A stretch of DNA of 64,000 bases from a virus (IMGVR_UViG_3300028800_000060:1-64000), one strand, 5' to 3'. Shown: positions 36,439 to 50,482, numbered from the stretch's first letter. Made by a program: numbers and translations. Notes: a model not told the origin generated them from the sequence alone.

Positions 36439-36725
36439 TTAAATTTGAAAAAACGCCGCAATTAAACGATCATACATATGAATCTGGGAATATTCCTCCC
36501 GGAAAAACTTTTATGTGCAGGTATAAAAATGATGAAAATGATTGTGATGACTGTCCTAATGCCATTTATATGATGGTAAATCCTAGAATGGATGGGGAGG
36601 GAGTATGTGACATCTTGGTTAACCTAAAAACCGGATTAGGTACTCCATGTATACAAGATGGCAAGTATTTGATGTTAACAGATTTCCGCTTTGTAGACAT
36701 TATGGCAAAGTGTAAAAACGCCTGA
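36435..36725 (+). CDS. Hypothetical protein
   Basis: Coupled ORF. Confidence 0.5.
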   Translation: MIKFEKTPQLNDHTYESGNIPPGKTFMCRYKNDENDCDDCPNAIYMMVNPRMDGEGVCDILVNLKTGLGTPCIQDGKYLMLTDFRFVDIMAKCKNA

Positions 36726-36903
36726 AAAATGAAGAACCAAAAAGAACTTATATGGTTAACTGACGACTTGATTGCTCGTCTTAACCATATAAGAAATCGG
36801 GCAAATAAACCCGATTTCTCTCGAAAAGAGTGGGAGTTATATATTAACCAGTTTTCGGTGTTAGAAATTGAAACTCTGAAAAATTGGTTGGGAATATAAA
36901 TAA

Positions 36904-37257
36904 ATGCCTAAAATAAAAACCAAAGTAAAAAAGCGAATCGAGGAAGTTAAAAATAAATATTTCCAGTGGACTTTCGAAGTCTCAGGAACTTATAATCCTG
37001 ATGGTGACTCTAACTTTTTAGGCAAAGTAAAAGATGAGGCTGGAAGAGTTGTAATGACCATTAAAGAAGATCCAGATTTCAATCAACTCTCACGCCTAAT
37101 TCGGACATCAAAATATCTAACTAAACCTACCGATATGAAAGGCCTGGCCGAATACATTTGGGATCGTAATTTACTTCCTATGGATCCTGAAGATAAAGCG
37201 GAATGGCAAAAGAAAAAGCGTATTCCTATTGACGTTAAGTATATAACCGTCATATAA
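36904..37257 (+). CDS. Hypothetical protein (late promoter TATAAATA upstream)
   Basis: ORF; YozE-like 'L.EYI' helix; tataaata just upstream. Confidence 0.5.
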   Translation: MPKIKTKVKKRIEEVKNKYFQWTFEVSGTYNPDGDSNFLGKVKDEAGRVVMTIKEDPDFNQLSRLIRTSKYLTKPTDMKGLAEYIWDRNLLPMDPEDKAEWQKKKRIPIDVKYITVI

Positions 37258-37265
37258 TAGTAAAT

Positions 37266-37532
37266 ATGCTTCAAGAAAAACGACAGCTATGTAGAGCTTG
37301 TGCTTTAGGTGATAATAAATTGAGCCATAATGGCGATCCCTATTCATGCATAAATGGAAGAGAAGAACTGATTAAATATCTTCCCGCAAAAGAACAATTG
37401 GTACAATTGTTAATACACGAGAGATTATCACATGATATGTTGGAATATATTGAAGCACTGGCAAAAGAAAGAAATAAAACTCCGATTGAAATTATTCGTG
37501 AGGAAGGATTAAATTTACTAGAAAATATTTAG
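37266..37532 (+). CDS. Hypothetical protein with C-terminal RHH-like segment
   Basis: ORF. Confidence 0.45.
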   Translation: MLQEKRQLCRACALGDNKLSHNGDPYSCINGREELIKYLPAKEQLVQLLIHERLSHDMLEYIEALAKERNKTPIEIIREEGLNLLENI

Positions 37533-37604
37533 CAGCCGTGGCTGCGTTATATATTTTCTAGTAAGATTCATTTTTGTTTGACATCCTAAACGAGGTATGA
37601 TACA

Positions 37605-37820
37605 ATGGTAGTGAAGAAGAAAGCTAGTCAGTTGCGTGTAAATGATAAGATTTTAGGCAATACAAATTATTATATTATTACATCTGTAAAAAATAGTACT
37701 TTTACCGGAAGTACATATCCAGTTATTGAAGTAGTCGATGCCTTTGGAAATAAAAAGACTATCGAAACTGGATCTAGTGAGAAGTTGCAGGATCATATTT
37801 ACGAAGTTGAAGTAATGTAA
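37605..37820 (+). CDS. Small SH3-like hypothetical protein
   Basis: 'KASQLRVNDKI'; sigma70 promoter TTGACA-17-TACAAT. Confidence 0.5.
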   Translation: MVVKKKASQLRVNDKILGNTNYYIITSVKNSTFTGSTYPVIEVVDAFGNKKTIETGSSEKLQDHIYEVEVM

Positions 37821-37824
37821 AAAT

Positions 37825-37914
37825 GGAGGGTTGGCAGAGTCCGGCTGATCGCGACTGGTTGCTAACCAGTTAGGCCTCGCAAGGGCCTCATAGGTTCAAA
37901 TCCTATATCCTCCG
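37825..37914 (+). tRNA. tRNA-Ser(GCT), CCA not encoded
   Basis: GGAGGGT acceptor, ACTGG-ttGCTaa-CCAGT, long variable arm, TTCAAAT T-loop. Confidence 0.9.
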
Positions 37915-37922
37915 GAGGTTTT

Positions 37923-37986
37923 TATGTAGTTAGTAAGGTGCTTACGTGTTAAATGGCTGATTCAGTCTTGCCAGGAAAGCTACATA
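37923..37986 (+). ncRNA. Putative three-way-junction small RNA between tRNA-Ser and tRNA-Arg
   Basis: TATGTAGTT/AGCTACATA closing stem; GTAAG/CTTAC and TGGC/GCCA inner hairpins. Confidence 0.4.
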
Positions 37987-37987
37987 C

Positions 37988-38063
37988 GCCCCTATCGTCT
38001 AATAGGATAAGGCATTGGTCTTCTAAACCAACAACCGGGGTTCGAATCCCTGTAGGGGTACCA
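37988..38063 (+). tRNA. tRNA-Arg(TCT)
   Basis: TTGGT-ctTCTaa-ACCAA, GGTTCGAATCC, ACCA end. Confidence 0.92.
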
Positions 38064-38086
38064 AATTATTTGAAAGGTGAATTATT

Positions 38087-38302
38087 ATGACAATTGACGA
38101 TGCTCTTATTAGACTCAACCAATTAAAAGAAGATTGGGGAGGTAATGAACCTTTGTTTCTTGTTGATAGAAGAGATAATCGATTATTCAACGAAAGACCT
38201 TTGGGTCATAATGACATGTGTCCTCCAACTGGTAAAATTTATATAGGTTATGGATACAATCAAAATGCTTCAATTGACATCTTTGATGATTTTTGGGATT
38301 AG
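38087..38302 (+). CDS. Hypothetical protein
   Basis: ORF with AAAGGTG RBS. Confidence 0.5.
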   Translation: MTIDDALIRLNQLKEDWGGNEPLFLVDRRDNRLFNERPLGHNDMCPPTGKIYIGYGYNQNASIDIFDDFWD

Positions 38303-38512
38303 GTGAATCTTATGAACGCAAGAACAACGCCCTTCTAAGGCGGGTGTTGGGATATGAAAATTTTGGTTGTTATTTTCCTTGCTCACTATGTGATTTATTA
38401 GATGCTAATAAATTTGCATGTGTCATGCAGGTAATGTTATATGATTTTAATAGGGATAACTAGATTGACATTTATGTTTCTTGTGTGATATACTTGATTT
38501 GTTGAAAGAAAT

Positions 38513-38587
38513 GGCCCCATAATTCAGTGGTAGAAAGCTCTCCTTATAAGGGGTATGTCGGTGGTTCGAATCCATCTGGGGCTACCA
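38513..38587 (+). tRNA. tRNA-Ile(TAT)
   Basis: GGCCCCA/TGGGGCT acceptor, loop ctTATaa, GGTTCGAATCC, ACCA end. Confidence 0.85.
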
Positions 38588-38631
38588 TATCAAAATCGAA
38601 CCTCTACAATATTTAGTAGAGGTTCGATTAT

Positions 38632-39128
38632 ATGAAATTTTGTCCTAAATGTAAAAAAGAACGTTCTAAACACGGAATATTTTGTAGTAGATCTTGTGCT
38701 AATTCTCGGAAATTTTCCGAGGTATCTTGTCAAAAGAAATCGGAATCTAATAAGAACTGGTATCTCCCGAATATAAAAAATCCTTATTAGAAAAAAGTAT
38801 TTTCTCAAAAAGAAGTATTGATAAATCCCAAAAGATTAAGCAACAAATAAAAGATGGACGTCTTTGGGAAGAGTTGTGTTATGATCTAAAGAAAGAAAAA
38901 GTAAGATTAGAACAAAATGGATTCTGTAATAAATGTGGTTTAAATACATGGTTAAATGAACCAATTGTATTGGAAATTCATCACATTGACCATGATAGTA
39001 TAAATGATACGCGAGAAAATTTAGAAGGTTTATGTCCTAATTGTCATTCGGTGACAGATAATTGGAGAGGTCGAGGAAAGAAATTTAAACGGAATAAACT
39101 TAACAAAAAGAAGATTTCTTCTTTTTGA
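38632..39128 (+). mobile_element. Free-standing HNH homing endonuclease, interrupted (stop/frameshift near 38790)
   Basis: N-part MKFCPKC...FCSRSCANSR; C-part 'CNKC...LEIHHIDHD..ND.RENL..LCPNCHS.T'; inside the tRNA cluster. Confidence 0.75.
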
Positions 39129-39241
39129 CATTTACACTTTGTTGTGATATATTAGATGAGTATGACAACACACAATTTTGTGGTTGTTTACCATTAGTTC
39201 ATTATGTAGGTGAATGTTCGCATGCGATATTTTAAAGTTTT

Positions 39242-39316
39242 GACCTGGTAGCTCAATGGTAGAGCTTTCGGCTTTTAACCGAAAGGTTGTGGGTTCGAGT
39301 CCCACCCGGGTCACCA
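39242..39316 (+). tRNA. tRNA-Lys(TTT)
   Basis: TTCGG-ctTTTaa-CCGAA, canonical D and T arms, ACCA. Confidence 0.95.
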
Positions 39317-39325
39317 AAAGTTTGT

Positions 39326-39419
39326 GTCCCTTAGTGGTGAAGGTATAGCCTTCCTCAGCAAAGAATAAACTTTGTCAGGGACCGCCCGTCTTAGACCACG
39401 GTAATTACCGTGAATCTAA
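39326..39419 (+). ncRNA. Putative structured RNA after tRNA-Lys
   Basis: GTCCCT/AGGGAC closing GAAGG/CCTTC and CAAAG/CTTTG hairpins, followed by the hairpin TTAGA-CCACGG/CCGTG-TCTAA. Confidence 0.4.
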
Positions 39420-39444
39420 ATCCGTAAAGAAAAAGGAAAACTAT

Positions 39445-39789
39445 ATGATTAAATTTGAAACACCGTATCTTGGAAAGGTAATTATCCGATTCAAGCATTA
39501 TCTTCCAAAAGTTGTTGTCCCTAACCAAAACAATTCTCTGGTTTCAATTGTGAATGGAATTAAGTTAATTCCTGGTCACACCGAATGTATTTTGCAGATT
39601 GATTGCGACCAGAATAATCAACCATTGTATCAATTTTTTGGTTTCGCAGATCTTCATCCTTCTGATAATTATAAGAAGGAGACGGGACGAGTTTTGGCTC
39701 TTAATCGTGCTGTTGAAGCTATGACCGAATCGGAACTTTTTGGAGATGCAGATTCACGCGCAGTTATGGCTGGATATTATAGTCGTTAA
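39445..39789 (+). CDS. Hypothetical protein
   Basis: 'G.A.LHPSDNY.KETGR.LAL.RA', a common phage motif. Confidence 0.55.
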   Translation: MIKFETPYLGKVIIRFKHYLPKVVVPNQNNSLVSIVNGIKLIPGHTECILQIDCDQNNQPLYQFFGFADLHPSDNYKKETGRVLALNRAVEAMTESELFGDADSRAVMAGYYSR

Positions 39790-39825
39790 AAGTAGTATGT
39801 GGCCTTCGGGCCACTGGAGTATTTT

Positions 39826-40077
39826 ATGAAATTAAAAATTGGTGATCTAATTAAAGCATACCATTCTGGTATTCATGAAGTAACAGTAGAACCCGGATAT
39901 GCTAAGACTGTTGGGTATAAACAAGTTTATACTAATGAAGGAAAACCTTTTAGGGGTAAAAATTATGTTTGTCATGTGGATTATTGCCGAAAGATTGACC
40001 CCGAATGGATTGAAGGGGAAGTTGCAATTCATAAACTAGTTATAAAGCAATTATATGATTTAATTAACCATGTTTGA
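39826..40077 (+). CDS. Hypothetical SH3-like protein
   Basis: 'MKLKIGDLI' with GGAG RBS. Confidence 0.5.
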   Translation: MKLKIGDLIKAYHSGIHEVTVEPGYAKTVGYKQVYTNEGKPFRGKNYVCHVDYCRKIDPEWIEGEVAIHKLVIKQLYDLINHV

Positions 40078-40822
40078 TCTCAGTATTTTTAATCTCGGTA
40101 ACCATATTGGTACACCTATTCTAATAGGTCAATTAGGTTCTAAAGCATACGGAACAGATACTCCCGATTCTGATGATGATTTCGTGAGTGTTGTTGTTTC
40201 ACCTCTTTCATATTATATCGGATTAAATTCTTGGGAAAATGACGGTTCGTTAAAGATTGAACGTAAAGAAACACATAATGCTGAATTAACGGCATTTGAC
40301 ATTAAGAAGTTTTTGAAGTTATGTTTGAATTTTAATCCTAATGTGATTCCTCTTTTATATTTACGTCAAAATGATTATGAATTTATGACGTCCGGAGGAA
40401 TTCGTTTATTGGCCGATCGGTCAGCATTTACCAGTAAAAGAGCTTACAATACAATGATTGGTTATGCCAAATCACAACGTAAAGCTGTTGTGAATGGTGA
40501 TACCGGTAAATTGGGAATGAAAAGAAAAGAATTAGTAGCAAAGTATAGCTATGATGTTAAATTTGCGAGCCATACTATTCGTATTTTAAAAATGGCCATT
40601 GAATTTTTCCGAGAGGGACAATTGAATGTTTATCGGGAGAATGATCGTGATTTGTTGGTTGGTATAAGACAAGGAAAATGGTCTTTGAAACAATGGTTAA
40701 ATGAAGTAGATTATTTACTTGAACAGGCGCAAAAAGCCGAAGCAGAAAGTAATTTACCAGAAACTCCAGATTACGAAAGGGTAAATGATCTTTGTATGGA
40801 TCTTATCAAGACTTATGCGTGA
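40070..40822 (+). CDS. Pol-beta superfamily nucleotidyltransferase (YcgL/RlaP-like)
   Basis: 'GSKAYGTDTPDSDDD', 'NPNVI', 'YD.KFASH.IR'. Confidence 0.85.
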   Translation: MFDLSIFNLGNHIGTPILIGQLGSKAYGTDTPDSDDDFVSVVVSPLSYYIGLNSWENDGSLKIERKETHNAELTAFDIKKFLKLCLNFNPNVIPLLYLRQNDYEFMTSGGIRLLADRSAFTSKRAYNTMIGYAKSQRKAVVNGDTGKLGMKRKELVAKYSYDVKFASHTIRILKMAIEFFREGQLNVYRENDRDLLVGIRQGKWSLKQWLNEVDYLLEQAQKAEAESNLPETPDYERVNDLCMDLIKTYA

Positions 40823-41273
40823 AATTACCGGTGATATTTGGGACTTTCACGAACAAGGTTTTCCTATCGTCATAACCACAAATTGTAATATAAATAGCCG
40901 ACATAATGCGGTAATGGGAAAAGGTATAGCTTCGGAAGCCAAAGAACATTTTCCTGGTTTACCAAAGATGTTGGGAGAACATATCAAATGTTTTTATGAT
41001 GCTGTAAAATATTTTCCCGAATTTAATTTATTTGTATTACCCACCAAATATAATTGGTGGGAAAAATCTGATTTGGAACTCATAGAACAAGGTGTAATAC
41101 AATTACGAAAAATAGTTCATTATAAACAGACGGTTATGCCTAAAGTTGGGTTTGATAAAGTTTATATGGTCAGACCTGGTTGTTCTAATGGCCACTTAAA
41201 ATGGGAAGATGTTAAACCTATTTTAGTAAATAATTTGGATGTTTCATTTTTTGTAGTAGAAAAAAGAACTTGA
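40815..41273 (+). CDS. Macro domain (ADP-ribose processing) protein
   Basis: 'ITGDIW', 'ITTN', 'VMGKGIA', 'PTK..W', 'RPGCSNGHLKW'. Confidence 0.8.
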   Translation: MREITGDIWDFHEQGFPIVITTNCNINSRHNAVMGKGIASEAKEHFPGLPKMLGEHIKCFYDAVKYFPEFNLFVLPTKYNWWEKSDLELIEQGVIQLRKIVHYKQTVMPKVGFDKVYMVRPGCSNGHLKWEDVKPILVNNLDVSFFVVEKRT

Positions 41274-41343
41274 CAAACCAAGTATTTTTTAGTATACTAG
41301 AATAGTTGAACAAAATATTGAGAATTTAGAAAGAAGGAATATT

Positions 41344-41544
41344 ATGAACTTTAAAAGAGCATTATCAATTTTGGCAAAGTTTTTCGTAATGAATGAAGAA
41401 GCATTTTCTCATGCCTTGTCCAAGGCAACTATTATTGCCTGGGCCGAACAGGTTAAGGAACAGACAGTCCAAGAGCTAGGCGATGTGTATCAGTTGACAC
41501 AACAGCAACATGCATTTTTAATTGGTGAAATTTTTTCTTTCTAA
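41344..41544 (+). CDS. Hypothetical protein
   Basis: ORF after TTGACA...TATACT promoter. Confidence 0.5.
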   Translation: MNFKRALSILAKFFVMNEEAFSHALSKATIIAWAEQVKEQTVQELGDVYQLTQQQHAFLIGEIFSF

Positions 41545-41553
41545 GGAATATTA

Positions 41554-41787
41554 ATGGCACAACATAGTTGTAGTAATCCGCGTTGTAATGATTTGGCTTC
41601 TGGAAGAAATTTATTTTGTGCGAAATGCTGGTTTCATATTCCAGATGGTCATCGAGAAGAAATCCGAGGTGACACCGAAAAGGCAGTTCACACATTGCGC
41701 GCCCATCCTAGCCGTGAGTGGCTTTCACGGGCACTGAAGTATATTACTGAACCACGAAGGCCGGCGCCCGCAGCTTCTGTACTATAA
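41554..41787 (+). CDS. Hypothetical Zn-finger protein
   Basis: 'HSC...C...LFC.KCW..IP'. Confidence 0.5.
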   Translation: MAQHSCSNPRCNDLASGRNLFCAKCWFHIPDGHREEIRGDTEKAVHTLRAHPSREWLSRALKYITEPRRPAPAASVL

Positions 41788-41818
41788 AAGAAATTGCGTC
41801 TTATTGAATTTTGAAGTA

Positions 41819-41886
41819 TTATTGAGGTCGTAAATAAATGGAACATGGAACCTGCTTCGGCACAGACACTGTACCAGCCTCAATAA
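41819..41886 (+). ncRNA. Putative structured RNA with a cUUCGg tetraloop
   Basis: 10-bp TTATTGAGGT/GCCTCAATAA closing stem; TGC-TTCG-GCA; ACAG/CTGT. Confidence 0.45.
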
Positions 41887-41906
41887 AGGGAACGATAGAC
41901 ACATTT

Positions 41907-41978
41907 GATATATCGTCTAGTGGCAGGACATTGCCCGTGAATAGGGTGAAAATGGTGGGTTCGAATCCCCGTATATCT
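41907..41978 (+). pseudogene. Degenerate tRNA (anticodon loop gtGAAta, Phe-like)
   Basis: Recognisable D arm GTCTAGTGGCAGGAC and GGGTTCGAATCCC, but irregular acceptor/T stems and no CCA. Confidence 0.55.
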
Positions 41979-42099
41979 TTTAGCCTTTAAAAGCTATTAT
42001 TGTGGAACAAATATAAATCGGTGCACCGATTTATAAGTGAGATCCGTCCCGCCGCGGTTTTATATATTATTGTAGTAATCTAACACCAAGAGAAATTTA

Positions 42100-42178
42100 G
42101 GGCTATGGAGATGCACGGGGTGTCTACTTCATTTGCAATGAAGAAAGCAGATCGGTTCAATTCCGATATGGTCCACCA
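42100..42178 (+). tRNA. tRNA-Ala(TGC), atypical D arm
   Basis: G3:U70 pair, CTTCA-ttTGCaa-TGAAG, ATCGG-TTCAATT-CCGAT, ACCA. Confidence 0.85.
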
Positions 42179-42180
42179 AT

Positions 42181-42276
42181 ATTTGTCTGTGGCAAAGTGA
42201 AGTCAGTTTAGTTTCCACCTAACTGTAGGGTTATAACCAGCGACTAAACGTAAGTCGCAACGTACAGTAGACAAAT
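42181..42276 (+). ncRNA. Putative multi-branch RNA between tRNA-Ala and tRNA-Cys
   Basis: ATTTGTCT/AGACAAAT closing stem; CAGTT(T)AG/CTAACTG, GGTTATAACC and GCGACT/AGTCGC inner elements. Confidence 0.45.
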
Positions 42277-42292
42277 CGGATGAGTTGATTAA

Positions 42293-42369
42293 GCATTGGA
42301 TGCCGAAGAGGTCGAGGCGATGGTCTGCAAAACCATTCTTAGAGAGTTCGAGTCTCTCCCTTTGCTCCA
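42293..42369 (+). tRNA. tRNA-Cys(GCA), two U-U mismatches in the acceptor stem
   Basis: ATGGT-ctGCAaa-ACCAT, GAGAG-TTCGAGT-CTCTC, U73 + CCA. Confidence 0.8.
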
Positions 42370-42394
42370 TAAATAGTGTATTAGAGAAATAAAA

Positions 42395-43084
42395 ATGTCA
42401 CAAAAAACGAGAGAGCAATTCAAAGACGATAATAAGCAACTTCGCTGCCAATTACGGCAGTCGCAACGTGAAGTTCACCAATTACAAGCGGATATTCTTG
42501 ATCTTGAGGAACTCCGTGATGAAAGTTTAGACGAACAAGAAGATTTGGTTGAGGATTTAGAAAAAGAATTGACCGTATTAAGACAAGATGTAGAAAGTTT
42601 GGAACGTGATTTAAATACAGAAACTGAAATTGTAGAACAATTGCGAACTGAGTTGAAAACTTCAGAAGATTCGAATACTTCTCTCCGTGATGAAATTTCT
42701 GAATTGGAAGAAGAGGCCGAAAATTTAAGATACCAACTTGAAGATTTGGAATCTGATAGTAATGAATGTGAAGAATTGCGCGAAGAACTTGCAGATGCTA
42801 ATCAGGACATTGATAATCTTCAAGAACGGATTAAAGAACTGAATTCCGAACGTACGGATGCTATGGATTCTGTCGATTATCTTCAAGAGGAAGTCGATTC
42901 TCTTCGTGATGAACTTGTAAATCTTCGAGATGATGAATGTATTCATGAAGACGAAAATACCGCTCTTCAAGATGAAATTGACTCTCTTCGAGACGAAAAT
43001 AACTCTCTTGAACAGGAAAATAGGGAACTTGGAGAGGAAAATGTTAGACTTTTAGGACAACTAGAAGATTACGAATCTCTTTAG
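42395..43084 (+). CDS. Very acidic long coiled-coil protein
   Basis: Continuous heptads rich in E/D/L; late-like CATAAATA upstream. Confidence 0.7.
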   Translation: MSQKTREQFKDDNKQLRCQLRQSQREVHQLQADILDLEELRDESLDEQEDLVEDLEKELTVLRQDVESLERDLNTETEIVEQLRTELKTSEDSNTSLRDEISELEEEAENLRYQLEDLESDSNECEELREELADANQDIDNLQERIKELNSERTDAMDSVDYLQEEVDSLRDELVNLRDDECIHEDENTALQDEIDSLRDENNSLEQENRELGEENVRLLGQLEDYESL

Positions 43085-43123
43085 TTTTATGTAGTCCGAA
43101 AGGACTACGGGGGTAGTTTATAT

Positions 43124-43202
43124 CCTCTCGTAGAACGGTAAAATCACTCCGTTCCATCTTTAGATGGATAGATGGTCGAGTCGTGACGATCCGGGAGGGC
43201 CA
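43124..43202 (+). ncRNA. tRNA-like cloverleaf with encoded CCA but non-canonical arms
   Basis: CCTCTCG/CGGGAGG + G-CCA; 6-bp GAACGG/CCGTTC 'D' stem; CATCT/AGATG; GGTCG/CGATC. Confidence 0.55.
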
Positions 43203-43210
43203 AATATTAT

Positions 43211-43300
43211 GGCCGTGTAGCAGAACTGGTACTTGCGCGAGACTCAAAATCTCGGTCGAACTAAGATTCATTGTGGGTTCGAATCCCACCATGGCCACCA
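43211..43300 (+). tRNA. tRNA-Leu(CAA)
   Basis: CGAGA-ctCAAaa-TCTCG, long variable arm, GGGTTCGAATCCC, ACCA. Confidence 0.92.
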
Positions 43301-43335
43301 AATCTCGAAATTAAAACTTAATAAGAGTGTAAAGC

Positions 43336-43548
43336 ATGCCTTACTACGATTATGAATGTACGAAATGCCATAAGCAATTTGAAGTTTTTCAGCATATGGT
43401 AGATGAACCTTTTACCGAATATCGGCATTTAGATAGATATCTTTGTACTTGTAATGGACCTGTTGTTCGGAATATATCCGTACCTTCGTTAAAATTTATA
43501 GGTAAGGGGTTTTTCGTTAATGATTATCCCAAGGACAGCAAATGCTGA
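43336..43548 (+). CDS. FmdB-family zinc-ribbon protein
   Basis: 'MPYYDYEC.KC...FEVFQ.M...F.GKGF..NDY'. Confidence 0.85.
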   Translation: MPYYDYECTKCHKQFEVFQHMVDEPFTEYRHLDRYLCTCNGPVVRNISVPSLKFIGKGFFVNDYPKDSKC

Positions 43549-43672
43549 ATTGGCAGTTAGATTATTATCGTTAAGTTATGGATATGAAAAAGAAGTAAAA
43601 TTGACAATGAAACAAGCTGCCGATTTATTAATTTGGATTCAAGAAGTAGACAAGTATTTAAAGAAACAAGTT

Positions 43673-43753
43673 TAGAGAGTAACCGCAACCTATTCGGTAT
43701 TAGGGATTATTAGTGGTAATAGGATAACACTAATATATAACTCCTGCTCTCTA
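43673..43753 (+). ncRNA. Putative multi-branch RNA before tRNA-Thr
   Basis: TAGAGAGTA/TGCTCTCTA closing stem; CCTA/TAGG and TATTAGTG/CACTAATA inner hairpins. Confidence 0.4.
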
Positions 43754-43765
43754 TTAAATTTAAAT

Positions 43766-43841
43766 GCCACAGTAACTCAGATGGTAGAGTGCCACACTTG
43801 TAATGTGGATGTCGGGGGTTCGAAGCCCTCCTGTGGCTCCA
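43766..43841 (+). tRNA. tRNA-Thr(TGT)
   Basis: CCACA-ctTGTaa-TGTGG, canonical arms, TCCA end. Confidence 0.93.
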
Positions 43842-43920
43842 TTTATTTCGGGCCGGCCGCCAAGCGACCAGCCCGATTTCTCTTATTGCTTTCCCCACAA
43901 AAAATTGATATAATGAGAAT

Positions 43921-44142
43921 ATGAAAAAAGAAAATTTGCTGCCTTCGGGCACGCGTGTTAAAGTACATTCTTTAGGTGACGGAAAAATTGGATATGGCAC
44001 CGTTTGCGGAGTCTATACAGCGGATATACATCCAAATTTTGCCATATATATTGTCTGGATGGCTCCAAGTAATCCTTGGAAAGATTATATGAATGGATAT
44101 ACTTGCATTACTGTTCCTAATGTCTGTTTATCTGTGGTATAA
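43921..44142 (+). CDS. Hypothetical SH3-like protein
   Basis: ORF after a sigma70 promoter. Confidence 0.5.
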   Translation: MKKENLLPSGTRVKVHSLGDGKIGYGTVCGVYTADIHPNFAIYIVWMAPSNPWKDYMNGYTCITVPNVCLSVV

Positions 44143-44297
44143 TTATGAAAAGAGAATTTCTATGTAAATTTAAGGACAATCGTCCTCATGAGGTATATTA
44201 TGGGGAATCTCTATTTGAGGTTTGGTACACATATATTCATGTACGCGGTTCCGAGTATATCGAACATATTATTTCTATTGAACGTGTGTGGTAGAAT

Positions 44298-45407
44298 ATG
44301 AAATTCCCAACATTATATCATAAAGGAAAAACTGGTGCTTTGGTTCAATGGGATATTTGGACCGAAGGAAGTACAATTTTTGCGCGACATGGACAAGTTG
44401 GAGGAAAACTTCAACTTACTCCCGGTATCGTTTGTGTGGGAAAAAATATCGGAAAAGCAAACGAAACTACTCCTTCTGAACAAGCTGATGCCGAAGCTAA
44501 AGCTATGTGGACGTTCAAGGTTGAACGGAAATATAGCGAAACACAAGAGGATGCTCAGGAAGAAGTTTTTCTTCCAATGTTGGCACATGACTATAAAAAG
44601 TTGACGGATAAAGCAAAGTCAAAGATTTCTTACCCAGTTGATGTTCAACCAAAACTTGATGGTGTCCGTGCCATGGCATTTTGGAGTGATGGACGTGTCG
44701 TGCTTTTCACTCGTGGTGGAAAAGAATGGATTGCACCAAAACACATTATTAAAGAACTTGAGAAGAAAATGCCACAGGAAATGGTTCTTGATGGAGAATT
44801 ATATATCCATGGTGTTGATTTTGAATCATTAACCTCTTGGGCAAAGAAGATTCATCCCGAAACGAAAGATTTACAATTCCACATTTTTGATATGCCCATT
44901 AATGAAATGGGTGCCCGGCAGCCTTGGTTTCAACGAGCTAAAAATTTAAAGAAATTTTTTACAGTTAACACCTTTAGTCATTCGGTGTTAGTTGATTGGG
45001 CAACGGCGAAAAGTGAAAAAGAAATTCTTCAAATGGAAGAAAATGCACTCGAACAAGGATATGAAGGTGTTATTGTTCGAACACTTAAAGGTGACTATAT
45101 CTTTGGACATAGATCTAAGGATCTTTTAAAGGTAAAAACATCGCAGGATGCTGAGTTCAAAATTATTGGTTTTGACCATGGGGTGGGTAAGTTTTCCAAA
45201 GCTATTGTTTGGAAATGTGAAACAAAAGAAGGAAAACCATTTAACGCTACTCCAAAAGCAACACAAGCTATTCGGGAAAAATTATATTCTGAAGGAAAGA
45301 AACATGTTGGTAAGTGGTTGAAGGTGAGATTTCAGAATTATACAGTAGAAGGTAAACCTCGATTTGGTAGAAGTTTGGGTTTTCGTGATCCCATTGATAT
45401 GGACTAA
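44298..45407 (+). CDS. ATP-dependent DNA ligase
   Basis: PMLA, QPKLDGVR, DGELY, FHIFD, EGVIVR, LLKVK, OB domain 'GKPRF'. Confidence 0.95.
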   Translation: MKFPTLYHKGKTGALVQWDIWTEGSTIFARHGQVGGKLQLTPGIVCVGKNIGKANETTPSEQADAEAKAMWTFKVERKYSETQEDAQEEVFLPMLAHDYKKLTDKAKSKISYPVDVQPKLDGVRAMAFWSDGRVVLFTRGGKEWIAPKHIIKELEKKMPQEMVLDGELYIHGVDFESLTSWAKKIHPETKDLQFHIFDMPINEMGARQPWFQRAKNLKKFFTVNTFSHSVLVDWATAKSEKEILQMEENALEQGYEGVIVRTLKGDYIFGHRSKDLLKVKTSQDAEFKIIGFDHGVGKFSKAIVWKCETKEGKPFNATPKATQAIREKLYSEGKKHVGKWLKVRFQNYTVEGKPRFGRSLGFRDPIDMD

Positions 45408-45415
45408 ATAAATAT

Positions 45416-45766
45416 ATGAAAACCTTTCGAGAAATATTTCGAGAATCAATACAGGCAACATTATTGAATTCTTATGGATATAGAGGTCCCTATCGTGGCG
45501 CTGATGGACATAACTCATTTATCTTAGATGAACATATTGAAATTTTAATTGATCTTCCTGGAAATGAGTGGCACTATGTTGTCGATGGTGTTGTAAAAAT
45601 TGTTGGTCATTTGAATGACCAATCATTGGTTGATTTCCTTCGAGGGAAAATAACTCCTCAAATGGAAACTGAAGAAACAGAAGATAATCGCTTAGCTAAA
45701 GCTAAGATATATGAACCTGATGGTGGTACATATTCAAGTACACCATCTACACCAGGAGATTCTTAA
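45416..45766 (+). CDS. Hypothetical late protein ('MKTFREIFRE', internal-head-protein-like N-terminus)
   Basis: TAAATA late-like element directly upstream. Confidence 0.5.
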   Translation: MKTFREIFRESIQATLLNSYGYRGPYRGADGHNSFILDEHIEILIDLPGNEWHYVVDGVVKIVGHLNDQSLVDFLRGKITPQMETEETEDNRLAKAKIYEPDGGTYSSTPSTPGDS

Positions 45767-45911
45767 ATGAAAACGAATTATGAAATTGTGTCGTTATTAC
45801 TTTTTGTACTTTTTGTTGTATTGATGTCTGTTGGTTGTTTTTTTGTGGGTGGAATAGCTGCGGGATTAATAGTTGCATCAATACTTGTTTTAATTTTAGC
45901 TCTTGTGATTC

Positions 45912-46124
45912 ATGCGATATATGAATGAAATGAATGACCAATTAGCAGATTACTTTTTCTTTTTTCTCTTGCGAGATCATCTTCCGGCGGGAGCAATAGC
46001 AGAAGCATTACAAGATGCCGAAAAATCTCTCGCGCAAGAAGTAATAAAAGATACCTTAATAACAGAAGGTATGTTAAATCTAGCTTCGAAATTTACAGAT
46101 AGATTTTTTGTGAAACAAATATGA
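45912..46124 (+). CDS. Hypothetical protein
   Basis: 'FFFLLRDHLPAG'. Confidence 0.5.
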   Translation: MRYMNEMNDQLADYFFFFLLRDHLPAGAIAEALQDAEKSLAQEVIKDTLITEGMLNLASKFTDRFFVKQI

Positions 46125-46330
46125 ATTGTTACGTCCTCATGAGGAACGATACGGGACAATATTACCGCGGTAATAATAAACCAATGTTTAAAGACCGATG
46201 GACGATGGATATAGAACAAGCAAAGAAATATAAACGTAAAGGTGATATTTCAAATGCGGTATCAATGATGCGTGACTATTCCAAAAAAGCGACAAAAATA
46301 TTACATTTACGGTGTACGTATATTCTTTAG
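46121..46330 (+). CDS. Hypothetical protein
   Basis: Coupled ORF. Confidence 0.45.
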   Translation: MNCYVLMRNDTGQYYRGNNKPMFKDRWTMDIEQAKKYKRKGDISNAVSMMRDYSKKATKILHLRCTYIL

Positions 46331-46339
46331 TGTACGCAG

Positions 46340-46624
46340 ATGAATACCAAATCTAGAGTAGTACATTGCAAAAAGGAACCATATGATGTTTATATTGGCC
46401 GTCCTAGTATTTGGGGAAATCCTTTTTCTCATATGGCCGGAACCCTAGCAGAGTTCCGTGTTAAAACCAGAGAAGAAGCCATCGAATGCTTCGCAAAATG
46501 GATCGAAAACCAACCCGGACTTATGGGACGTTTACCTGAACTCCGTGGGAAAGTTTTAGGTTGTTGGTGTTGTCCAAAAGCTTGTCACGGGGAAGTACTC
46601 GTGAGGCTTGCAAACAATGTATAA
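46340..46624 (+). CDS. DUF4326-like protein
   Basis: 'YDVYIGRPSIWGNPF...LRGKVLGCWC.PKACHG.VL'. Confidence 0.85.
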   Translation: MNTKSRVVHCKKEPYDVYIGRPSIWGNPFSHMAGTLAEFRVKTREEAIECFAKWIENQPGLMGRLPELRGKVLGCWCCPKACHGEVLVRLANNV

Positions 46625-46695
46625 ATAGTTGTGTAGTTAAATCAACTGGCTTTAAGCAGATGAGCACTTAGCCAGTGTGCTGAGAAAAGGACAAA

Positions 46696-47538
46696 ATGAT
46701 GTATCAAAGTGGCCTAGTTGCCGTTATTAAAGTTGGAGGCAAAGTTCTCCGCGAAGACCGGGGAGAAGTTTGTATTCCTTTTGGTTCAGAGTATTCGATT
46801 CTAGTAAAGAATCTAAAGGTACAGAGAGTTAAAATTAGAATAACCATTGATGGTGATGATGCCTTCGATGGAACAGAAATTGTAATTCCCGCCCATTCAG
46901 AGGTTGAATTGGAGAGATTTATTCGCAACGGTAATTTCTCATCTGGTAATCGTTTTAAATTCATCGAACGTATCGCGGATATTGAAGAGTTTCGTGGCGT
47001 TAAAGTTGATGATGGTTTAATTCGAATCGAATACTGGACAGAGAAAGTTCATAATCCATATGTATTGGTAAATAACGCTTGGAAACATGAATTTGGAACA
47101 AGCTATTCAAATCCTTGGAGAAGTGGATTTCATAATTTCGATTCTTTGGATTCAGGACAAGTAAAATCTCGTGGTATTACCGGATCGAGTTCAGACCCGT
47201 TTTTAAATTCTTGCCATACAATGAATTATTCCAGTGATGTGAATGCACGAGGAATTGAAATTAGCGCTTGTAATGTTACTAGATCATTCACTCCACCTAA
47301 GAATGAGAATGGCATTACTGTGGGCGGTGGCCAGAGTAATCAGAGATTTGCGACAGTAGAATGGTTTGAAACAGAACCACAGAGTGAAGTACTTTTATTG
47401 CATTTAGTGGGAAAGATTTCAACAACAAAAATAGAAACCCCCATTACGGTAGATATGAAGAAACAATGTCCCACATGTGGAAAAATGGGGTTAGGTAGGT
47501 TTTGTTCACGTTGTAGTACAGCTTTAAATTGGATTTAA
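46696..47538 (+). CDS. Hypothetical late protein with C-terminal zinc ribbon
   Basis: TATAAATA at 46620-46627; CPTC...CSRC at the C-terminus. Confidence 0.65.
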   Translation: MMYQSGLVAVIKVGGKVLREDRGEVCIPFGSEYSILVKNLKVQRVKIRITIDGDDAFDGTEIVIPAHSEVELERFIRNGNFSSGNRFKFIERIADIEEFRGVKVDDGLIRIEYWTEKVHNPYVLVNNAWKHEFGTSYSNPWRSGFHNFDSLDSGQVKSRGITGSSSDPFLNSCHTMNYSSDVNARGIEISACNVTRSFTPPKNENGITVGGGQSNQRFATVEWFETEPQSEVLLLHLVGKISTTKIETPITVDMKKQCPTCGKMGLGRFCSRCSTALNWI

Positions 47539-47543
47539 TTTAT

Positions 47544-47618
47544 TCCTCAATAGCTCAATGGTAGAGCTTTCGACTGTTAACCGAAGGGTTGTAGGTTCGA
47601 ATCCTACTTGAGGAGCCA
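47544..47618 (+). tRNA. tRNA-Asn(GTT)
   Basis: TCCTCAA/TTGAGGA acceptor, loop ctGTTaa, GCCA end. Confidence 0.93.
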
Positions 47619-47622
47619 AGTT

Positions 47623-47767
47623 TTGTGAAAGATAGACTAACAAGGAACATAGGGAGCCCTTAAAGCCTAATTATAAGTATGGATGCATACAGAACATAAA
47701 TAAATGGCAGCTAGGAGCGGGGTAAAGCGGACCGCAATCCGTAATCTCAGGTGAAATCCTTTCACAA
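47623..47767 (+). ncRNA. Putative ~145-nt structured RNA with tRNA-like acceptor/T-arm end
   Basis: TTGTGAA/TTCACAA closing stem abutting AGG-TGAAAT-CCT; inner hairpins TAGG/CCTA, GTATG/CATAC, GCGGA/TCCGT. Confidence 0.5.
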
Positions 47768-47878
47768 TGAAAGATATACATGAATTTTTTGAAAAAGATA
47801 ATAAATTTGATTCTGTGTATAATTTCGTTTTTGACTAAATATAACAGAGTTAAACTTGTAGCAACAATCGAGGGAAAT

Positions 47879-48190
47879 ATGTCAACACAATTAGTAGCAG
47901 GACAAGTAGCAACAGTTAAGTTGAGCGGTTTGGATGTAAAGGGAGATGTAGCTCCTGTTTATAATCTAGCTGGCTCTGTGGCCACGGCCGATGCCGCGGT
48001 ATTAGCAGTTACAGTTAACGCAGACGGCACTTTGTCTGTAACATCTCTAGGACCAATAGGAGCAGCAACAGTGACATTTACCGCCACTGATGCTGCTGTA
48101 AATGGGAATGTTTTATCAACAACTCTTGAATTTACTGTAGTAGCAGGACCTGCTGTGCAATTAGTAGCAACCGTTGTTTCTGTAGCGTAG
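47879..48190 (+). CDS. Ig-like (Big-type) virion-associated protein
   Basis: Val/Ala/Thr-rich beta protein 'VTVNADGT...GAATVTFTA'; CTAAATA late-like element and GAGGG RBS. Confidence 0.6.
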   Translation: MSTQLVAGQVATVKLSGLDVKGDVAPVYNLAGSVATADAAVLAVTVNADGTLSVTSLGPIGAATVTFTATDAAVNGNVLSTTLEFTVVAGPAVQLVATVVSVA

Positions 48191-48256
48191 TAGTAAAATG
48201 ATGTTGATAGTTTACCGACTATTGACATCCGGTGTAGTTAATGATACAATGAAATT

Positions 48257-48670
48257 GTGAAGATAATCAGACTTGGCTTTACTGGCACCAGAAAAGGAAT
48301 GACTGAAAGGCAAAAGAAAGAATTGTCTCTTTATTGCCGTTTATGGCAAAATTCTGGTAAAACAATTGAATGGCATCATGGATGTTGTATTGGTGCCGAT
48401 GTAGAATTTGATAATATCGTTCGTAATTACGAACGATATGGCCATTTACATCCTTCTAACAATACAAAAACATTTGTTGATTGTTTTGAAAATGGTGATA
48501 TTCTTTATCCAGAAAAACCACCATTAGTAAGAGATAGGGATATTGTGAATGCTGTTGAAATTTTAATTGCTGCCCCGTATCAAGAAAAAGAAATAATTCA
48601 CAGTGGAACTTGGACAACTGTTCGTTATGCGAAACAAAAAGGTATTGAGATTATTATTTTAAAAAGGTAA
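48257..48670 (+). CDS. SLOG-superfamily (DprA/YspA-like) nucleotide-binding protein
   Basis: 'GFTGTR', 'HHGCCIGAD', 'RDRDIV', 'SGTWTTVRYA'. Confidence 0.7.
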   Translation: MKIIRLGFTGTRKGMTERQKKELSLYCRLWQNSGKTIEWHHGCCIGADVEFDNIVRNYERYGHLHPSNNTKTFVDCFENGDILYPEKPPLVRDRDIVNAVEILIAAPYQEKEIIHSGTWTTVRYAKQKGIEIIILKR

Positions 48671-48675
48671 AATGT

Positions 48676-48751
48676 AGCCACGTAGCCCAATTGGTATAGT
48701 CCTTGCCTTAGAAGCAAGTTAGTGTGGGTTCGAATCCCACCGTGGCTACCA
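48676..48751 (+). tRNA. tRNA with TAG (Leu) anticodon but short variable loop
   Basis: AGCCACG/CGTGGCT, CTTGC-ctTAGaa-GCAAG, 5-nt variable loop, GTGGG-TTCGAAT-CCCAC, ACCA. Confidence 0.8.
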
Positions 48752-48936
48752 AATATTATGGCAAAAAAGAACGAAAAACAAAAACGGTTTATCATTCATG
48801 AAAAATTAACAGAAGGATCTGAAACTACTAATAAAATTGGTTCTTATGACACATATGAGGAAGCTTGCAATACGGTAGAAAGGCTTCCCGTTTCTAGAAT
48901 TCCGTTTTGTTCTATTGAAGATACTGGTGTTATTTC

Positions 48937-49230
48937 ATGAAAGCATTAGATGTATTTAAAAGACCTGTTAGTGTTGGAGATTTTGTAGCTGCTGCTACGA
49001 CATGTTGCAAAAGCACATCTCTTAGAGTTGGAAAAGTTATCAATATTACTGAACAAGGAAATGTGTCCATTAAACTGCCAGGAAGAAAATGGGTAAACAA
49101 AACCAATTGTATTGGATTTCCAGTGCATGGATATGTAGATGCATTGGTTTCAGTAACAATACATGCGGGTAAGTTTATTATCATTTCTCCGGATTCTCTA
49201 CCGGAAGATTTCAAAAGTAAATTGATATAA
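48937..49230 (+). CDS. Hypothetical protein
   Basis: 'D.F.RPVSVGDFV'. Confidence 0.5.
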   Translation: MKALDVFKRPVSVGDFVAAATTCCKSTSLRVGKVINITEQGNVSIKLPGRKWVNKTNCIGFPVHGYVDALVSVTIHAGKFIIISPDSLPEDFKSKLI

Positions 49231-49237
49231 TAGTTTC

Positions 49238-49313
49238 GGGAGTTTCGTCTAATGGGAAGGATTCCTCCCTCCAAAGGAGTAAGACGGGTGTTCGAGTCAC
49301 CCAACTCCCGCCA
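49238..49313 (+). tRNA. tRNA-Trp(CCA)
   Basis: GGGAGTT/AACTCCC, CTCC-ctCCAaa-GGAG, GGGTG-TTCGAGT-CACCC, GCCA. Confidence 0.88.
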
Positions 49314-49467
49314 TGGTTAATATTATGGAAACATACGAAAAAATTGATAAATTGCGGAATGTTTTGGATTTCTTAGTTGATACTCTGTCTAATAAGAAAA
49401 TTATTACAAGAGAAGAAGCCAAAAGATTCCATGAAGCATTGGATCGGGCTACAGAATAAATAGTTTT

Positions 49468-49938
49468 ATGGCAAAAATAATCGAAGCCCCAAATGTAGAT
49501 ACGAATAACCATATAAAATTATACTATACCATTTTCCTTGCTGGTTCCATTGAAAACGGAAAAGCAGAAAACTGGCAAGAAAAGCTAATAGAGACTCTTG
49601 TTAGATTTGATAATATAGTGATTCTCAATCCTCGCCGTAAACATTGGTCAGAACTAGAAAAGAATAATTTACGTTTTCAAATTGCATGGGAACAAGAAGG
49701 AATTGAAAAATCAGATCTTGTTGTTTTTTATTTTCATCCTGCAACCCAAAGTCCTATTAGTTTACTAGAATTGGGGCAATGTTTGGGATCTCATAAAAAA
49801 GTTATTGTTTATTGTCCACCAAATTTTTTCCGTTATACGAATGTGGAAATTACTTGTGAGCGGTATAGCATTAAACCTCACAAAGATTATCAGGTATTTA
49901 TTGCGGATATTATTAGTCATATATCGAGGTTTGCATGA
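49468..49938 (+). CDS. Nucleoside 2-deoxyribosyltransferase-like protein
   Basis: 'IFLAGSIE', 'WQ', 'LNPRR', 'QIAWE', 'SPISLLELG'. Confidence 0.85.
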   Translation: MAKIIEAPNVDTNNHIKLYYTIFLAGSIENGKAENWQEKLIETLVRFDNIVILNPRRKHWSELEKNNLRFQIAWEQEGIEKSDLVVFYFHPATQSPISLLELGQCLGSHKKVIVYCPPNFFRYTNVEITCERYSIKPHKDYQVFIADIISHISRFA

Positions 49939-50228
49939 AGCCATTAACATTTGCAGATTATAATAAAGAAGTTAGAGATTTCCCAGGTGTCGTTATTCTA
50001 TTTTTTACAGCACCATGGGCCATACCGGCCTTAAAAACTGCGTCATTTCTACGTTCATCAAATTTAGAAATTAAAATATTTTCCGTAGATTATGATTCCC
50101 AACGAGAATTGGTATCACTATTTTCAGTTAGAGAATTACCTTTTGTTTACTGTTTACGAAATGGACAGGTTAATTCATTCGCATGGCATTGCGAAACGGA
50201 ATCTGAGTTGAAAGAATTATTGAAATGA
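49935..50228 (+). CDS. Thioredoxin-fold protein lacking the CxxC cysteines
   Basis: 'LFFTAPWAIPA' in place of WCxPC; 'VD.D...L...FSVRELP'. Confidence 0.7.
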   Translation: MKPLTFADYNKEVRDFPGVVILFFTAPWAIPALKTASFLRSSNLEIKIFSVDYDSQRELVSLFSVRELPFVYCLRNGQVNSFAWHCETESELKELLK

Positions 50229-50482
50229 TACGCGGAGCAAATAAAACACCACTCACATTTTTGGTCCTAATTTTGTGTTCGTTATTACAAACAACACCAG
50301 AACGAAGTGAGATGTACCAAGATTTGTGTGATTCATTAGGTGAACGTAGAGTGTTGAATAAAATTAATACCTTGGAAAAACATGGTTACGTTGATATCGG
50401 TGTTTCAACCAGAACCGCTTGGATCAATTCTAACGGAAAAGAGTTGTTAGATGACCTTAGAAAAATTTTTAGTCCTAAATAA
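50225..50482 (+). CDS. Winged-helix-like hypothetical protein
   Basis: 'L.KHGYVDIGVSTRTAWIN.NGKE.L'. Confidence 0.55.
   Translation: MIRGANKTPLTFLVLILCSLLQTTPERSEMYQDLCDSLGERRVLNKINTLEKHGYVDIGVSTRTAWINSNGKELLDDLRKIFSPK

Follow-up and report, generated by a model that had tools for sequence, protein, structure and literature searches.

We describe three small structured elements, s5, s6 and s7, which lie within the transfer RNA (tRNA) cluster of an uncultured phage and which probably represent conserved RNA genes or elements that are cut from tRNA precursors. The window examined here comprises the first 64 kb of a 175,698-bp virus record from IMG/VR (IMGVR_UViG_3300028800_000060). Comparison with related phages indicates that all three lie on the + strand inside tRNA transcription units and are under selection to keep their structure; each is located within the tRNA cluster, on the tRNA strand, and is neither a tRNA nor an open reading frame (ORF). 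An initial annotation of the window had grouped them with four further segments (s1 to s4) as a single set of multi-branch small RNAs interleaved with the tRNA genes. This grouping does not hold, as only s5, s6 and s7 are conserved, s2 is composite and s1, s3 and s4 lack homologues, and these remaining four segments are not established RNAs. Phage tRNA clusters are now viewed mainly as aids to codon usage or as substitutes for tRNAs destroyed by host defenses. Small non-tRNA RNAs have been recognized in such clusters since the description of T4 RNA C and RNA D but, to our knowledge, have never been assigned a function.

Megablast and blastn searches of cultured phages returned no near relative of the window. 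Comparisons were made with related uncultured lineages identified using the window's DNA ligase gene (44298-45407) as an anchor. Identity to the window's ligase protein is 71% in L009, 67% in L086, 66% in L083, 61% in L089, 60% in L010, 59% in both L090 and L091 and 53-56% in L013, L167 and L169; an additional 179,687-bp contig, L171, with a ligase recorded at 49% identity, was reached through a pattern scan. Gene order is kept between the window and these relatives, so that equivalent spacers can be compared across genomes. Coding DNA of the window is 66-75% identical to that of L083 and L009, whereas ordinary spacers cannot be aligned. Spacers without an element show no match between the window and these two lineages, whereas s6 and s7 do align, and we count this alignability in favor of conserved RNA.

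Element s6 (43673-43753, + strand) is predicted to form a three-way junction, and a profile search located homologues in L083 (8513-8596), L171 (3179-3262) and L009 (9759-9842). A 9-bp closing stem (P1) leads into two further helices, P2 with 4 bp and P3, whose sequence varies. In the alignment of the four distinct sequences, pairing holds in 92% of cells, compared with 81% in shuffles and 31-45% in slid controls. Both partners have changed in eight pairs; P1, which is 100% paired, accounts for five of these, and the covariation score was reached by none of 500 shuffles. The P2 and P3 loops are complementary to each other in every lineage while differing in sequence, pairing CCUAUU with AAUAGG in the window (loop-shuffle p 0.03), AAUCUAAU with AUUAGAUU in L083 and L171 (p 0.0014-0.0021) and CCGAC with GUCGG in L009 (p 0.09). 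The predicted kissing helices of the three lineages span 8, 6 and 5 bp and are unlike in sequence, whereas there is almost no variation in the junction strands, A-K-UAGGCGUU and AUAUAAUCUCC. Between L083 and L171 only 2 of 84 positions differ, one representing a compensatory pair, and the flanks are 72-76% identical.

The upstream setting of s6 is also constant. It always follows the same two small ORFs, encoding a Zn-ribbon protein and a product of 48-51 amino acids (aa), and shares 3-10 nt with the end of the second; in the window the 5' strand of s6 overlaps the stop codon of ORF 43520-43675. In both the window and L009 the element is positioned 10-12 nt upstream of tRNA-Thr (12 nt in the window), while in L083 it precedes a tRNA-like gene that has decayed in L171. 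It is absent from the other lineages examined. Pattern scans of IMG/VR recovered only contigs of this clade and one chance coding match (L166), and scans of prokaryote genomes for the motif gave two chance matches only.

Element s5 (43124-43202, + strand) is a conserved, covarying RNA with the shape of a tRNA. Its 7-bp acceptor stem pairs CCUCUCG with CGGGAGG and is followed by a G at the discriminator position (G73) and an encoded CCA (43200-43202); both G and CCA are kept in the two copies, as in the neighboring tRNAs. The inner portion includes U8-A9, a D-like arm with a 6-bp stem and an overall four-arm layout. The anticodon loop is replaced by a 5-bp arm with a 4-nt loop (UUUA in the window and CUUA in L089, or YUUA), and s5 would consequently be unable to decode. 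No 7-nt anticodon loop is present, and the 5-bp stem is backed by two compensatory pairs. The T region is non-canonical, as a stem of 5 bp with a loop of 7 nt is not conserved there, although an AGUCG motif is kept in both copies. The element lacks the T-loop consensus and falls below the 29-bit gathering threshold of the Rfam tRNA family RF00005, with no match at E<=10.

The homologue of s5, at 15211-15293 of L089, occupies a slot that differs from that in the window, between tRNA-Leu(tag) and tRNA-Leu(taa). All 19 predicted pairs are kept in both copies. Of the six that have changed on both sides, three belong to the acceptor stem, two to the 'anticodon' stem and one to the D-like stem, a pattern that argues against a decaying pseudogene. 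Five of 500 shuffles scored as well, and slid controls gave at most one compensatory pair. When a covariance model was built from the two copies, its next matches were genuine tRNAs (Asn, Lys, Ile and Arg) at 13-23 bits, which indicates that s5 derives from a tRNA; judged by its sequence and predicted fold, s5 is a tRNA-derived mimic. The initial annotation had proposed decoys for anticodon nucleases among possible roles, which is unlikely for s5 because it has no anticodon loop to be cut. A pattern scan of IMG/VR for s5 recovered only the L089 contig, and the s5 and s7 models found nothing over the whole genomes behind L171 and L012.

Cloverleaves with short anticodon loops are otherwise rare in this group, and not every one of them has to be functional. 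A scan of the group for strict cloverleaves returned 84 canonical tRNAs, one form with a 4-nt loop and one with a 5-nt loop, and none in shuffles. The former, at 8602-8672 of L083 and directly downstream of the s6 homologue of that lineage, is a perfect cloverleaf with a 7-bp acceptor stem, a D arm, a T arm with a 7-nt loop and the 4-nt loop GCCA, but without CCA; the matching stretch of L171 is decayed. The latter lies at 5871-5940 of L169.

Element s7 (47623-47767, + strand) is a predicted 145-nt multi-branch RNA closed by a 9-bp stem, and begins about 4-5 nt after the CCA of tRNA-Asn. Its homologue in L083 (14102-14246) is 75% identical and is likewise located 5 nt after the CCA of tRNA-Asn. 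The two sequences differ in 37 columns, of which 10 fall in predicted pairs and none breaks a pair; all 38 predicted pairs are kept, four through changes on both sides, and slid controls gave none of the latter. A tentative distant relative at 9845-9985 of L091, immediately after tRNA-Leu(tag), scored 20.9 bits (E = 0.017); its closing stem is entirely different and the motifs AGAUAGAC and GUGAAAUCC are common to both. In L171 a tRNA-like gene occupies the s7 slot, and a 15-mer scan of IMG/VR for s7 gave 73 chance matches. A role as a 5' untranslated region (UTR) riboswitch or leader is ruled out by the L083 copy, where a perfect TTGACA-17-TATAAT promoter lies downstream of s7, between it and the next gene.

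Several observations apply to the three elements in common. No + strand ORF of at least 40 aa covers s5, s6 or s7 (the 5' strand of s6 touches the stop codon noted above), and homologues of the conserved elements vary by frame-breaking indels; for s7 these two observations together exclude coding. Conserved G-U pairs in all three assign them to the + strand, as for the tRNAs. None of the three gave a blastn match at E<=0.01 against 50,697 cultured phage records.

Considered as a set, the seven segments were correctly described by the initial annotation with respect to coordinates, terminal stems and inner hairpins, all of which are present as claimed. Each lies 1-19 nt from a tRNA or from a weak tRNA-like gene at 41906-41979, none is followed by a U-run, and no repeats are shared among the segments or with the rest of the genome, consistent with the claim that they have no obvious sequence in common. 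No Rfam 15 family matches any segment across 36500-50500, either at gathering thresholds or at E<=10, the only hits being tRNAs and noise, and searches of L083 and L089 at E<=1 gave the same outcome. In particular, RF00005 matched none of s1 to s7 even at E<=10. The best local alignments of the segments to the 187 tRNAs of the group were no better than those of shuffles, with z scores of -0.7 to 1.7, inside the shuffle range, for s1 to s4, s6 and s7.

The annotation had also named covariation in homologues and folding beyond shuffled sequence as checks on its proposal, and here the outcome is divided. Elements s5, s6 and s7 pass the homologue and covariation tests, while s1, s3 and s4 fail them or offer nothing that can be tested, and the latter fold about as well as shuffled sequence. 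With the boundaries of the initial annotation, which had been picked so as to include terminal stems, fold z scores for s1 to s7 are -0.7, -3.8, -2.1, -3.4, -1.6, -2.3 and -1.4, those of s2 and s4 being the most negative. For whole spacers as defined by annotation they are -0.5, -3.6, -1.0, -1.9, -2.7, -0.5 and -1.3, where the value for s6 is affected by an annotation boundary that cuts its stem. The p values for a long-range closing helix, from 500 dinucleotide shuffles, are 0.008, 0.355, 0.024, 0.046, 0.251, 0.022 and 0.042 for s1 to s7, and two control spacers gave 0.45 and 0.49. Terminal stems are thus somewhat commoner in the window than expected by chance. A general enrichment of closing stems beside tRNAs is nevertheless ruled out, since among 13 related lineages p<0.05 was reached by 5 of 67 tRNA-adjacent spacers and by 6 of 50 others, in a count whose ORF mask was crude and clipped some elements.

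Segment s2 resolves into two parts. The first, s2a (39326-39382, + strand), is a 57-nt three-way junction with a 6-bp stem and two hairpins that follows tRNA-Lys. In L009 the tRNA-Lys trailer leads straight into a conserved hairpin without s2a, and nhmmer matches in L086 and L083 cover only positions 58-127 of the s2 spacer, so s2a is, on this sequence comparison, an insertion private to this phage. The second part, s2b (39391-39419, + strand), is a palindromic hairpin about 25 nt upstream of ORF 39445-39789; every relative examined (L009, L010, L013 and L086) has a counterpart hairpin some 25-40 nt ahead of its own copy of this ORF. A C-G pair in one of the window and L009 has become U-A in the other, a compensatory change, and in L013 the hairpin directly follows a TTGACA/TATACT promoter. 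The closing helix of the complete s2 segment is not beyond shuffles. Segment s2 is therefore a conserved hairpin upstream of the next gene joined to a private insertion, and not an established RNA.

The other three segments, all on the + strand, are lineage-specific spacers with terminal inverted repeats rather than established RNAs. Segment s1 (37923-37986) is the 64-nt spacer from tRNA-Ser to tRNA-Arg, with a 9-bp terminal stem, and its site in L010 measures only 28 nt. Segment s3 (41819-41886) is a 68-nt spacer with a 10-bp terminal stem. In relatives its slot, directly after the homologue of ORF 41554-41787, is filled by tRNA-Val, and ARAGORN finds no tRNA-Val in the window. Segment s4 (42181-42276) is a Y-shaped 96-nt spacer from tRNA-Ala to tRNA-Cys, genes that are 13 nt apart in L009. 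None of the three has a homologue among the relatives or, by blastn, in the cultured phages searched, and blastn and nhmmer comparisons of s1 to s4 with more than 80 related loci found nothing apart from the s2 hairpin. What supports s1, s3 and s4 is the terminal stem statistic (p 0.008-0.046), joined for s4 by its z score of -3.4 with the initial boundaries. On this basis s4 is a candidate only, and s1 and s3 have no support as functional RNAs.

Two further loci are of interest beside these spacers. The weak tRNA-like gene next to s3 (41906-41979, + strand) has an anticodon loop that reads GAA (Phe) and an acceptor stem composed only of A and U, folds as a cloverleaf and scores 23.6 bits with RF00005, below the 29-bit cut-off; in L083 its slot holds tRNA-Phe(gaa). 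In L010 an 80-nt element at 5256-5335, 2 nt after tRNA-Arg, has a closing stem of about 17 bp and inner hairpins (z = -3.8, closing helix p = 0.005) and is not homologous to any segment of the window.

A route by which the conserved elements could be produced can be outlined. Elements s5, s6 and s7 would share transcripts with the tRNAs, starting from the region's sigma-70-type promoters. RNase P would then cut where the next tRNA begins and, in s5, also at the element's own acceptor stem. The other end would be freed by processing of the 3' trailer of the preceding tRNA, and the terminal stems may shield the products from exonucleases, so that they persist as stable small RNAs in the manner of T4 RNA C and D. 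Release by tRNA processing, as the initial annotation had suggested, is plausible because the elements are spaced 1-12 nt from tRNA ends, share the tRNA strand and, in s5, carry an encoded CCA. Our best guess on function is speculative: s5 might occupy or titrate a factor that reads the acceptor/CCA end of tRNAs, and s6 and s7 might be binding modules for a protein or small ligand. The more specific proposal, in which s5 soaks up or misleads a host factor or defense toxin acting on the 3' ends of tRNAs and is itself immune to anticodon nucleases, and in which the invariant junction of s6 forms a ligand-binding or catalytic core, we consider quite unlikely at present.

Certain points weigh against reading s5, s6 and s7 as conserved RNAs released from tRNA precursors. 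Homologues are few, with two distinct sequences each for s5 and s7 and four for s6, which is below R-scape-grade statistics, and the structures compared were chosen by RNAalifold to fit the data. For s7, represented by two sequences only, 32 of 500 shuffles do as well as the observed pair. Minimum free energy z scores are modest (-1.6 to -2.0 for s5, -2.3 for s6, -1.4 for s7 and -0.5 for its L083 copy), and the searches made recovered the elements only from a small clade of uncultured phages. Their processing, stability and any activity in trans are matters that we infer, and s1, s3 and s4 are left unexplained.

The most general alternative is that all seven segments are passive processing spacers, which place RNase P, RNase E or RNase III cuts or block exonucleases and have no function once released. 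Their distance of 1-19 nt from tRNA ends is in agreement with such a role, as are the terminal stems, which are the commonest shared feature, and the lack of conservation in four of the seven; in addition, the overlap of s6 with the upstream ORF means that s6 would form the 3' end of that messenger RNA after an RNase P cut. A simple hairpin would suffice for these purposes, yet in s6 the junctions are invariant and the pairing between the loops covaries. Only 2 of its 84 nt have changed between two phages with about 74% identity in the flanking DNA, and L171 retains the element despite the decay of the tRNA-like gene downstream. The s5 homologue in L089 is located in a different slot, between two tRNA-Leu genes, and 7-28 nt between the same tRNAs are enough in relatives. 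We therefore regard passive spacing as an unlikely account of the whole set. A narrower proposal is that s1, s3, s4 and the 5' portion of s2 have no function as RNAs and consist of rapidly evolving filler, or of scars left where cassettes were gained and lost, with inverted repeats that arose by chance or recombination; this has a slightly better than even chance of being correct. It is favored by whole-spacer z scores of only -0.5 to -1.9, by the lack of any homologue in the relatives or cultured phages searched, by the short spacers (13-28 nt at the s1 and s4 sites) or tRNA found at the same sites in relatives and by the finding across 13 lineages that closing stems are not enriched next to tRNAs. 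Against it, the closing helices of s1, s3 and s4 beat shuffles (p 0.008, 0.024 and 0.046) where two controls do not, s4 reaches z = -3.4 with the initial boundaries, and young lineage-specific RNAs would be undetectable when even the nearest relative's ligase is only 71% identical.

Two other explanations concern the identity of the segments. If they were decayed tRNA genes that retain an acceptor-like stem, one would point to the cloverleaf of s5 with its acceptor stem, G and CCA and the cross-hits of its model to tRNAs, to the position of s3 in a tRNA-Val slot and to the clear aberrant cloverleaves of relatives (L083 8602-8672 and L169 5871-5940). We judge this very unlikely, given that RF00005 matches no segment at E<=10, that the likeness of the segments to the 187 tRNAs of the group is no greater than that of shuffles, that the terminal stems of s1, s3, s4, s6 and s7 are 9-10 bp and not 7, and that compensatory change in s5 and s6 reflects selection for structure, not decay. 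Most improbable of all is that some segments are self-cleaving ribozymes that mature the adjacent tRNA ends, in the manner of the theta ribozymes, which resemble those of hepatitis delta virus (HDV). Theta ribozymes do have their cleavage site next to phage tRNAs (PMC10879173), s1, s2, s4 and s7 start 2-9 nt after a tRNA 3' end, and the fold of s6 is a compact junction around an invariant core. The region gave no hit to a ribozyme family of Rfam 15 at E<=10, however, and, as read by eye, the terminal stems start too near the tRNA to leave a 6-7-nt P1 strand and s7 has no complement to the tRNA trailer; CCA is moreover encoded in these phages, whose tRNA leaders are of the ordinary kind on which RNase P acts. 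Among these readings, we favor conserved structured RNAs for s5, s6 and s7 and make no such claim for the other four segments.

The surrounding region (37.8-49.3 kb) carries 11 tRNA genes, all on the + strand and interspersed with small ORFs, together with several sigma-70-type promoters that match 11 of 12 positions. It also encodes an RNA ligase, an RlaP-family nucleotidyltransferase, an ATP-dependent DNA ligase and an HNH endonuclease. The initial annotation had further listed an RlmN-like enzyme; ORF 34416-35360 does give a Radical_SAM Pfam hit, which is below threshold (24.2 bits against a cut-off of 29.5), and the RlmN label is not confirmed. A terminator-like hairpin with a U-rich tail, identified by reading the sequence directly, follows tRNA-Thr at 43848-43884 (+ strand), where the spacer 43842-43920 folds at z = -3.5, and transcription of the unit containing s5 and s6 probably stops at this hairpin. 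Overall, the tRNA region is a mosaic of short one-strand cassettes that carry tRNAs, small ORFs and RNA elements other than tRNAs. Within the cluster, 38874-39128 is a small ORF for an HNH endonuclease, and in relatives GIY-YIG, NUMOD3 and HNH genes are found at other places in theirs, which fits a cassette-like turnover.

Several individual genes of these clusters depart from the expected form. Most tRNAs of the window encode CCA, the sole one in the region without it being tRNA-Ser(gct) (37824-37922), whose 3' acceptor strand and next bases read CCUCCGGAGG followed by UUUUU and have a terminator-like look. ARAGORN assigns 38513-38587 as tRNA-Tyr (anticodon ata), but the other loop register gives UAU and the slot is held by tRNA-Ile(tat) in L009, L083 and L086; from its sequence, this gene is probably an AUA-decoding tRNA-Ile, and it has a promoter of its own at 38465-38494 that matches 11 of 12 positions. 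ARAGORN misses a long tRNA-like gene after tRNA-Asn in L171 (8138-8233), which has a good acceptor stem, a T arm and CCA, and, in L013 (4250-4370), an unusual gene resembling tRNA-Arg(TCT) that follows tRNA-Ser. The Ala-Cys spacer of L013 (7610-7718) holds an apparent short Cys-rich ORF (start MKDSKPCKNF) and not an RNA structure.

Comparison with known RNA classes helps to place the three elements. Like a tRNA (RF00005), s5 has a 7-bp acceptor stem, discriminator, CCA, U8-A9 and four arms, and its model cross-hits tRNA-Asn and tRNA-Lys; it differs in its 4-nt loop in place of the 7-nt anticodon loop, its missing T-loop consensus, its 6-bp D stem and its failure to match RF00005 at E<=10. The architecture of s6 recalls that of purine riboswitches, with a P1 closing stem, P2 and P3 hairpins joined by L2-L3 kissing and conserved junction nucleotides. 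It is unlike them in lacking an Rfam riboswitch match, a J1/2 strand and an expression platform, and also in position, being found not in a 5' UTR but where an ORF ends, with a tRNA 10-12 nt further downstream. Theta ribozymes are HDV-like RNAs found beside phage tRNAs, and the segments share with them the character of small structured RNAs directly adjoining phage tRNA genes (PMC10879173). The segments differ from theta ribozymes in having no HDV-like Rfam match and no nested double pseudoknot that could be seen by eye, and we reject this identity because no such family matched at E<=10 and the layout is unfit, although no RNArobo descriptor search was made. The Y RNAs bound by Ro60 (TROVE) offer a further parallel, as their 5' and 3' ends pair around a branched or tRNA-like module. 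No Y RNA family match was found in the window or in L089, and with no TROVE gene in the window's genome this identity is rejected as well. A Ro60/TROVE gene is present within the tRNA cluster of the related phage L089 (3198-4673; ligase 61% identical), which suggests Y-RNA-like partners in that phage.

The closest precedent is provided by bacteriophage T4, whose tRNA region gives rise to RNA C and RNA D, with no known role (PMC3014915, PMC9697503), so that the precedent invoked by the initial annotation, of stable non-tRNA species in a tRNA cluster, holds. Like these RNAs (the stable RNAs of species 1 and 2), s5, s6 and s7 are small non-tRNA elements of a phage tRNA cluster, located on the tRNA strand and with no function assigned so far. 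They differ in showing no sequence similarity to cultured phage records, a collection expected to include T4, and in that the predicted folds of the window's elements differ among themselves. For the annotation of phage tRNA clusters more generally, the comparison offers a useful calibration, as closed multi-branch shapes recognized by eye next to tRNAs proved mostly unsupported. What is new is thus three motifs of a known kind, the non-tRNA RNAs of phage tRNA clusters. To T4 RNA C and D they add three sequence-defined examples with comparative support, including an apparently selected tRNA body minus its anticodon loop. All three are short, synthesizable and testable in vitro, which makes the question of function more approachable, and if s5 were indeed to act as an acceptor-end mimic, or the s6 core to act as proposed, they would represent a new class of phage counter-defense or regulatory RNA.

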